From the NCBI RefSeq assembly GCF_050920415.1, contig NZ_CP169309.1: 64,000 nt of DNA; one strand, written 5' to 3'. Of the stretch, positions 14,198 through 61,830 are shown piece after piece; position 1 is the first letter of the stretch, and each line of letters opens with the position of its first letter. Under the pieces are notes generated by a model. It ran no database searches and had not been told where the DNA came from. It saw nothing but the letters and a program-made list of their open reading frames with translations. Position numbers and translations under genes: made by a program. This stretch comes from Escherichia coli. GTDB taxonomy: Bacteria; Pseudomonadota; Gammaproteobacteria; Enterobacterales; Enterobacteriaceae.

Positions 14198-14905
<708 letters not shown>

Positions 14906-14988
14906 TGCTTTCAGCCCGCGTTATCGCGGGCTTCCTGCCTGTAATCTTTCCTTATTCATCGCTGATACGGTGCTAAAAAGTAACCAAT

Positions 14989-15011
14989 AAATGGTATTTA
15001 AAATGCAAATT
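14989..15011. promoter_or_regulatory. NsrR-type operator (AAATGGTATTT-A-AAATGCAAATT) upstream of yeaR-yoaG
   Basis: Two 11-bp half-sites resembling AAGATGCATTT / AAATGCATCTT around a 1-nt spacer, about 70 nt upstream of yeaR ATG. Confidence 0.5.
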
Positions 15012-15077
15012 ATCAGGCGTACCCTGAAACGGCTGAAATAAACTGTTTTCAGCACATTCATCGAAGGAGGGAAAAGG

Positions 15078-15437
15078 ATGCTGCAAATCCCACAGAATTA
15101 TATTCATACGCGCTCAACGCCTTTCTGGAATAAACAAACTGCGCCTGCCGGAATATTCGAACGTCATCTTGATAAAGGAACGCGCCCGGGGGTATACCCA
15201 CGCCTTTCCGTTATGCATGGGGCGGTCAAATATCTCGGCTACGCTGATGAACACAGTGCAGAACCTGATCAGGTGATCCTTATCGAAGCGGGGCAGTTTG
15301 CGGTGTTTCCGCCAGAAAAGTGGCACAACATTGAAACCATGACTGACGATACTTATTTCAACATTGACTTCTTCGTTGCTCCTGAAGTCCTGATGGAAGG
15401 CGCGCAACAACGGAAAGTCATTCATAACGGGAAATGA
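15078..15437 (+). CDS. yeaR: DUF1971 protein YeaR
   Basis: ORF track 119 aa; synteny; NsrR-like operator upstream. Confidence 0.8.
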   Translation: MLQIPQNYIHTRSTPFWNKQTAPAGIFERHLDKGTRPGVYPRLSVMHGAVKYLGYADEHSAEPDQVILIEAGQFAVFPPEKWHNIETMTDDTYFNIDFFVAPEVLMEGAQQRKVIHNGK

Positions 15438-15440
15438 ATC

Positions 15441-15623
15441 ATGGGCAAAGCAACGTATACCGTGACCGTTACCAATAACAGCAATGGTGTTTCTGTCGAT
15501 TATGAAACAGAGACGCCGATGACTTTGCTGGTGCCAGAAGTGGCGGCTGAAGTGATAAAAGATCTGGTGAATACCGTGCGTTCTTATGACACGGAAAACG
15601 AACATGATGTTTGTGGTTGGTAA
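15441..15623 (+). CDS. yoaG: Small protein YoaG (60 aa)
   Basis: ORF track; 3 nt downstream of yeaR, likely co-transcribed. Confidence 0.75.
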   Translation: MGKATYTVTVTNNSNGVSVDYETETPMTLLVPEVAAEVIKDLVNTVRSYDTENEHDVCGW

Positions 15624-15770
15624 TTATCACTGATCGTAGATGGCGCAATTTCTGCGCCATCGCAAAAAAATCCTCCGTGATGCTTGTCACAAATCTTGCC
15701 CTCCTGATGTTGTGCTATGCTTTTTATCAGCGACTAACCCGCTAATGCAAAACAGATAAGTGAGGAAACA

Positions 15771-16019
15771 ATGGGCATTCTGTCATGGATTATTTTTGGG
15801 CTTATTGCCGGTATTCTGGCGAAGTGGATCATGCCAGGTAAAGATGGTGGTGGATTCTTTATGACTATCCTGCTGGGAATAGTCGGTGCCGTAGTCGGCG
15901 GATGGATCAGCACGCTGTTTGGCTTTGGTAAAGTCGATGGCTTCAATTTTGGCAGCTTCGTGGTTGCCGTTATTGGTGCGATTGTCGTGCTGTTTATCTA
16001 CAGAAAGATCAAAAGTTAA
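15771..16019 (+). CDS. yeaQ: GlsB/YeaQ/YmgE-family small membrane protein
   Basis: ORF track 82 aa; Gly-rich double TM sequence. Confidence 0.8.
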   Translation: MGILSWIIFGLIAGILAKWIMPGKDGGGFFMTILLGIVGAVVGGWISTLFGFGKVDGFNFGSFVVAVIGAIVVLFIYRKIKS

Positions 16020-61473: not shown

Positions 61474-61830
61474 AGTCGCTGCCATTTATTCAGATAAAGA
61501 GTGCGTGGATGGTAGCAGAATTTCGCTTTGCTTACCGCCTGTTGTTAAGTGATTTGATCGATGGTTGTTAATGATGTCAACGATGGCGCAAAAAATGCCC
61601 GCTTTTGGTGCGCGCTGCGTCAGAATGGCGCAGTAATTTCCAGTAAATTTCGTCAATGATCACAATTCCAGAATTATATTTTACTTCTGCATAACATTGC
61701 GTTTTTTATTCTTTTTATTCACCTGCATCGCAAACGTATTCACTTTATATGCACTTTAAATGCATATGGTTTGGTTATAACTCCTTGATTTCCAGTTAGC
61801 CACCGCGGTTTATGCACTTTTATCACTGGC

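Follow-up and report, generated by a model that had tools for sequence, protein, structure and literature searches.

The promoter of the yeaR-yoaG operon of Escherichia coli is a textbook case of joint control by nitrate, through NarL, and by nitric oxide, through NsrR. In PMC5320621, yeaR is described as 'known to be regulated by NsrR', and also by NarL, with Lin et al. 2007 cited; PMC4959519, which cites the same study, ascribes the nitrosative-stress response of yeaR-yoaG to NarL together with NsrR. As these two citing papers present it, repression of yeaR by NsrR was shown genetically. Transcripts of yeaR and yoaG were up 160–168-fold in anaerobic nitrate/NO RNA-seq (PMC5320621). On the side of activation, a NarL dimer was seen by cryo-EM on the yeaR promoter at TAACCAATAAATGGTA, centred at −43.5, and this promoter was the template of the first NarL activation-complex structure (PMC10853779). 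One NarL dimer at the −43.5 7-2-7 site, which is located just upstream of a weak −35, is enough for activation of yeaR (PMC10853779, PMC7419079); the −35 is termed an 'intrinsically weak −35 element' (PMC10853779). To judge by the title of Squire et al. 2009, cited in PMC7419079, Fis competes with NarL at the same promoter. The yeaR promoter also serves as a nitrate/inflammation biosensor in engineered probiotics.

A sequence-only reading of the DNA described here had proposed NO/nitrate-responsive control of yeaR-yoaG, and the statements in PMC5320621 and PMC4959519 bear this out. The NsrR site of the yeaR promoter is already known and published, and our analysis brings nothing new on the regulation. 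The value of the re-analysis lies in a correction: the NarL site is upstream of the NsrR dyad and overlaps it, and the supposed NarL heptamer downstream is best read as the −10 hexamer.

The window, by which we mean the whole 64-kb stretch of DNA that was analysed, carries the gene order leuE-yeaR-yoaG-yeaQ, which is also the order in K-12. With leuE ending at 14905 and the yeaR ATG beginning at 15078, the interval 14906–15077 coincides with the intergenic region between these two genes. LeuE, encoded by the ORF upstream of yeaR, belongs to the LysE family. The genes of the operon and the elements near the two edges of the interval are as follows.

14913–14932, plus strand: GC-rich hairpin AGCCCGCG-TTAT-CGCGGGCT just past the leuE stop; a perfect 8-bp inverted repeat, its stem common to the window and K-12
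15065–15070, plus strand: Shine-Dalgarno sequence AGGAGG, read from the sequence, with 7 nt between it and the yeaR ATG; in a stretch that the genera have in common
15078–15437, plus strand: yeaR, 119 aa, DUF1971 (Pfam PF09313, E 8e-23); annotated as yeaR in RefSeq genomes
15441–15623, plus strand: yoaG, gene 2 of the operon, 60 aa, DUF1869 (Pfam PF08956, E 5e-33); PDB 1nei, 'hypothetical protein yoaG'

The earlier assignment of the two products as a DUF1971/DUF1869 pair was confirmed by these Pfam matches. YeaR also matched PDB 3bb6 ('Uncharacterized protein yeaR') with an E of 6e-81. The remark that the biochemical function of the pair is unclear still holds, the solved structures 3bb6 and 1nei being titled 'uncharacterized' and 'hypothetical'; the operator finding does not address the biochemical role of YeaR and YoaG.

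The hairpin at 14913–14932 is the upstream edge of the intergenic region. It is probably the stem of the leuE terminator; no T-run follows it. At the other end of the operon, 3' of yoaG, the letters at 15633–15668 read as a hairpin, GATGGCGCA-ATTTC-TGCGCCATC, followed by the A-run GCAAAAAAA and by no T-run. If this hairpin ends the yeaR-yoaG transcript, it would not be a canonical plus-strand intrinsic terminator.

When a 1-kb query (14700–15700) was compared with complete E. coli genomes, matches were obtained in 5,419 of 5,426, with leuE, yeaR, and yoaG annotated. Identity over this segment reached at least 99% in only 6 of the 5,419 genomes, most lying between 95 and 99%, and was 100% to strain MFDS1022581. 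Since relatives at this level are so few, the lineage of the window appears to be uncommon, at least at the yeaR locus.

Within the intergenic region, the elements of the promoter were assigned as listed below.

14981–14996, plus strand: NarL 7-2-7 activator site TAACCAATAAATGGTA (TAACCAA-TA-AATGGTA), identical to the site bound in cryo-EM; centre 14988.5 (−43.5)
14989–15011, no strand: 11-1-11 dyad AAATGGTATTT-A-AAATGCAAATT, assigned as the NsrR operator from a matrix match and an identical published 23-mer; centre 15000 (−32)
14997–15002, plus strand: −35 hexamer TTTAAA, 4/6 to TTGACA, entirely within the NsrR dyad, by the published numbering
15020–15025, plus strand: −10 hexamer TACCCT, 3/6 to TATAAT, at −12 to −7 by the published numbering
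15032, plus strand: inferred transcription start, a G, computed from the published −43.5; it leaves a 46-nt 5' UTR

The dyad was present letter for letter as it had been written in the sequence-only reading, with the arms AAATGGTATTT (14989–14999) and AAATGCAAATT (15001–15011) on either side of a central A at 15000, making 23 bp. It had been put about 70 nt upstream of yeaR, and rightly so: the ATG is 66 nt away from its 3' end and 78 nt away from its centre. The 23-mer AAATGGTATTTAAAATGCAAATT, given as the predicted yeaR NsrR site in CFT073 (PMC5320621 Table 4), is identical to the dyad of the window.

For scoring the dyad, a symmetrised log-odds matrix was constructed from the 25 other 11-1-11 NsrR sites of PMC5320621 Table 4, the yeaR site being excluded. 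With this leave-one-out matrix the dyad scored 22.3 bits and ranked first among 63,978 positions of the window, the runner-up having 13.3 bits; a scan with an NsrR matrix had been the check suggested for it. The score exceeded that of 21 of the 25 training sites, and when the 64 kb were shuffled 300 times with dinucleotides preserved, a single shuffle came up to it. When the matrix was made from the 16 ChIP-positive sites only, the dyad scored 21.3 bits and was matched in none of 300 shuffles. Hence, the match of the dyad to the NsrR motif is beyond chance, and the NsrR-like operator noticed in front of yeaR-yoaG stands on both the matrix score and the published 23-mer.

As a plain inverted repeat, the dyad is at the level of chance. 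Its arms are complementary at 8 of 11 positions, and a direct count of symmetry gave 113 positions in the window that equal this. The NsrR dyad, which lacks an exact seed of 6 bp, was not reported by an inverted-repeat finder. It may be noted that many accepted NsrR sites are equally imperfect as palindromes (PMC5320621 Table 4).

The second-best position for the NsrR matrix was 61746–61768 (TATATGCACTTTAAATGCATATG), in the divergent intergenic region between xthA and astC. It was rejected as an NsrR site, its 13.3 bits being at the level of the shuffle maxima (mean 14.1). These letters resemble a dyad of the form TGCAC-N5-..TGCA, which we take to be of the NtrC type.

The transcription start was placed by applying the published −43.5 numbering to the 7-2-7 centre at 14988.5. 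The centre of the dyad lies 11.5 bp downstream of that point and hence at −32, in agreement with the position that the 2007 abstract of Lin and colleagues is said to give for the NsrR operator. With its centre at −32 the dyad holds the whole of the −35, so that, as far as the inferred start is correct, the operator overlaps the core promoter. The spacer between the −35 and −10 hexamers is 17 bp, in the window as in all orthologues examined. A generic sigma-70 promoter scan of 14800–15800 found no promoter. This outcome, like the need for an activator, follows from the hexamers, in which only 7 of 12 positions agree with the consensus.

Compared with TACYYMT-NN-AKRRGTA, the NarL site at 14981–14996 has 10 of 14 matches, a level equalled by 209 sites in the window, so that it is not distinctive by sequence alone. 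By the published −43.5 centre, the site ends at 14996 and the −35 begins at 14997; the two abut, an arrangement suited to activation. The NarL site also overlaps the left half of the dyad by 8 bp (14989–14996), where its promoter-proximal heptamer AATGGTA is located. The sequence-only reading was right in giving the promoter a NarL input (PMC10853779) and wrong in placing the heptamer downstream of the dyad, the real site being upstream of it and overlapping.

The heptamer it had offered, TACCCTG, is found at 15020–15026, 8 nt past the dyad. It might be argued that nitrate acts through this heptamer, which would then be a functional NarL element on the downstream side of the NsrR dyad. With 2 mismatches to TACYYMT it equals each heptamer of the true site, and the sequence is kept as TA[A/C][C/T]CT across genera. 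The match is nevertheless at the level of chance: 5,627 heptamers in the window are as good or better, which makes TACCCTG no better a NarL heptamer than 4% of the window heptamers. Nor has it a convincing 7-2-7 partner, since a 7-2-7 built on it gives 9 of 14 matches (5 mismatches), a level met by 1,168 sites in the window. By the published numbering TACCCTG falls at −12 to −6, a place from which a bound protein would be expected to repress transcription, not to activate it. The literature assigns activation to the 7-2-7 at −43.5, where one dimer suffices (PMC10853779, PMC7419079), and the published mutational work points the other way. As for the conservation of the sequence, it occurs at a fixed 17 bp from the −35, which is what a −10 hexamer predicts. 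We therefore hold a NarL function of TACCCTG to be hardly tenable. TACCCT, lying where the published numbering puts it, is best read as the −10 hexamer, and TACCCTG as the −10 plus one base.

The core of the promoter is well conserved within the species. Among 5,416 E. coli genomes, 4,526 have the 67 bp from 14969 to 15035 with 100% identity, and in the remainder identity is 95% or more; for the 67 bp adjoining this core on the upstream side, only 15 genomes gave a match. K-12 does not depart from the window anywhere within 14969–15035, against 12 differences between the leuE stop and the 7-2-7 and 4 in the 5' UTR.

Variants of the core were also seen. In all, 890 of the 5,416 genomes have at least one difference from the window within the 67 bp. 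E. coli O157:H7 F7386 has a T-to-A change at the equivalent of window position 15004, which turns AAATGC of the right NsrR half-site into AAAAGC; Citrobacter sp. Awk 4, whose dyad scores 18.8 bits, shares this change. In E. coli AMSCJX03 (NZ_CP058355.1) an IS1A lies directly upstream of the NarL 7-2-7, with its junction at about window position 14976. The insertion stands in place of the intergenic sequence nearest to leuE, and the NarL/NsrR/−35/−10 core remains intact.

Orthologues were collected by a scan with YeaR, one genome being taken per species, and 26 full loci were obtained from Escherichia, Citrobacter, Salmonella (subspecies arizonae and diarizonae), and Silvania. In all 26, the 400 bp upstream of yeaR gave their highest NsrR-matrix score at the same place, 73–84 nt before the ATG. 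The scores ranged from 18.8 to 23.5 bits, those of the two Salmonella subspecies being lower (14.9 and 10.7). In the alignment, the majority fraction was 0.79–0.87 for the columns of the 7-2-7, the dyad, the spacer, and the −10, the flanks having 0.51 (upstream) and 0.59 (5' UTR). The spacing from the dyad to the hexamers is fixed in Escherichia, Citrobacter, and Salmonella; across these three genera the −10 is kept as TA[A/C][C/T]CT behind the same 17-bp spacer. The NarL 7-2-7 is conserved in Escherichia, most Citrobacter, and Salmonella.

Two departures from this pattern concern the 7-2-7. In the Citrobacter sedlakii/amalonaticus group (L007, L015, L024) it is swapped for TGCCCCTTTTGGTGTA, which has 3 mismatches compared with 4 in E. 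coli, and these loci still carry an NsrR dyad of 20.5–20.8 bits. Silvania has no recognisable 7-2-7 (7 mismatches), and its dyad, AAGTCGCATTT-T-AAATGCATTTT, is the strongest of all at 23.5 bits, with a left half nearer to the NsrR consensus. This pattern of 7-2-7 and dyad in Citrobacter and Silvania suggests that the left half-site of E. coli may be a compromise between recognition by NarL and by NsrR.

The AT-rich dyad could also be looked upon as a sum of other elements, namely the right heptamer of NarL, the −35, and an AT tract for Fis or alpha-CTD, in which case its likeness to an NsrR site would be coincidental and the NO response indirect. Besides its chance-level palindrome and the competition between Fis and NarL that the title of Squire et al. 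2009 announces, such a view can draw on the left half, AAATGGTATTT, which is under constraint from the NarL heptamer and makes a poor half-site for NsrR (7/11 to the ytfE-type consensus AAGATGCATTT). It can also draw on ChIP-seq of NsrR in CFT073, which gave no peak at yeaR, an absence read by its authors as a probable false negative; yeaR is missing as well from the 19 promoters common to the CFT073 ChIP-seq and the K-12 ChIP-chip (PMC5320621). Against it stands the leave-one-out score of 22 bits, seen in only 1 of 300 shuffles. The right half, AAATGCAAATT, lies outside the NarL site, and yet it matches the consensus at 9 of 11 positions and is conserved. In Silvania a better NsrR dyad is in place where the 7-2-7 is lacking. 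Finally, there is the genetic evidence of NsrR repression, as it is reported in PMC5320621 and PMC4959519. A coincidental dyad is, in our judgement, highly improbable. We conclude with high confidence that the dyad at 14989–15011 is the NsrR operator of the known dual-input (NarL/NsrR) promoter of yeaR-yoaG.

For this promoter, a scheme may be drawn up that takes its sequences, geometry, matrix match, and conservation across genera from our own analysis, and NarL binding and activation, NsrR repression, and the numbering from the literature. The promoter is intrinsically weak, with TTTAAA, a 17-bp spacer, TACCCT, and a start at about 15032. Nitrate or nitrite leads to phosphorylation of NarL, and phospho-NarL at −43.5, which this promoter needs, then recruits RNA polymerase, a step that has been shown in the literature. 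NsrR carrying its iron-sulfur cluster would bind the 23-bp dyad and thereby cover the −35, some of the spacer, and the one NarL heptamer that is proximal to the promoter. Since the dyad covers both the −35 and this heptamer, bound NsrR should repress by occluding sigma region 4, and probably also by competing with NarL. Judged from the geometry, NarL and NsrR probably exclude each other on the shared 8 bp. Nitric oxide would damage the cluster of NsrR, NsrR would leave the operator, and transcription would rise. All but one of the 5,426 complete E. coli genomes (5,425) have the nsrR gene, which the 64-kb window does not include.

The transcript that begins at the inferred start would carry a structure at its very end.

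15032–15053, plus strand: stem-loop with which the inferred yeaR mRNA begins, GCUGAAA, an 8-nt loop, and UUUCAGC; 7-bp stem

Its folding energy is −9.2 kcal/mol, with z = −5.2 against shuffles. Escherichia species retain the stem, in which an A-to-G change leads to a G.U pair, and differ in the loop. When the sequences were folded one by one, hairpins were found at the same place of the 5' UTR in Citrobacter and Salmonella, with other arm sequences. RNAalifold, applied to a MAFFT alignment of the 5' UTRs, gave no consensus structure, the arms of the different genera being out of register. A scan of 14700–15900 against Rfam at E ≤ 1 gave no match, and the stem-loop is not described in the yeaR promoter literature cited here. 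A selected post-transcriptional element, for example a 5' hairpin guarding against 5'-end-dependent decay, is a possible reading of these letters, though we think it rather unlikely.

The same letters belong to the inverted repeat 15025–15060 (TGAAACGGCTGAAA / TTTCAGCACATTCA), which was considered as an operator of the LacI family (Cra-like) and rejected. Its halves, GCTGAAA and TTTCAGC, are 8 bp apart, and in Cra-like operators of this family the half-sites are adjacent; moreover, the arm sequence is not conserved outside Escherichia.

The locus may finally be set beside the systems described before. The yeaR-yoaG promoter of K-12 (Lin, Bledsoe and Stewart 2007; Squire et al. 2009; PMC10853779) is the same locus with a core 100% identical, from which the window departs only by strain-level substitutions outside that core. 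The NsrR operators of ytfE, hcp, and hmp (AAGATGCATTT-N-AAATGCATCTT) share with the yeaR dyad the 23-bp 11-1-11 layout and the overlap with the core promoter. Unlike them, the yeaR operator has a left half, AAATGGTATTT, that deviates from the consensus at the letters serving also as the NarL heptamer AATGGTA, and it overlaps the site of an activator, so that repression of yeaR may be partly anti-activation. The ogt promoter resembles that of yeaR in being Fnr-independent and activated by NarL alone through a 7-2-7 abutting the −35, and repression by Fis has been reported (PMC10853779, PMC7419079). It differs from yeaR in that no NsrR operator is described for it in PMC10853779 or PMC7419079, and in the number of 7-2-7 sites required, which is two for ogt (−44.5 and −77.5) and one for yeaR (PMC10853779, PMC7419079).
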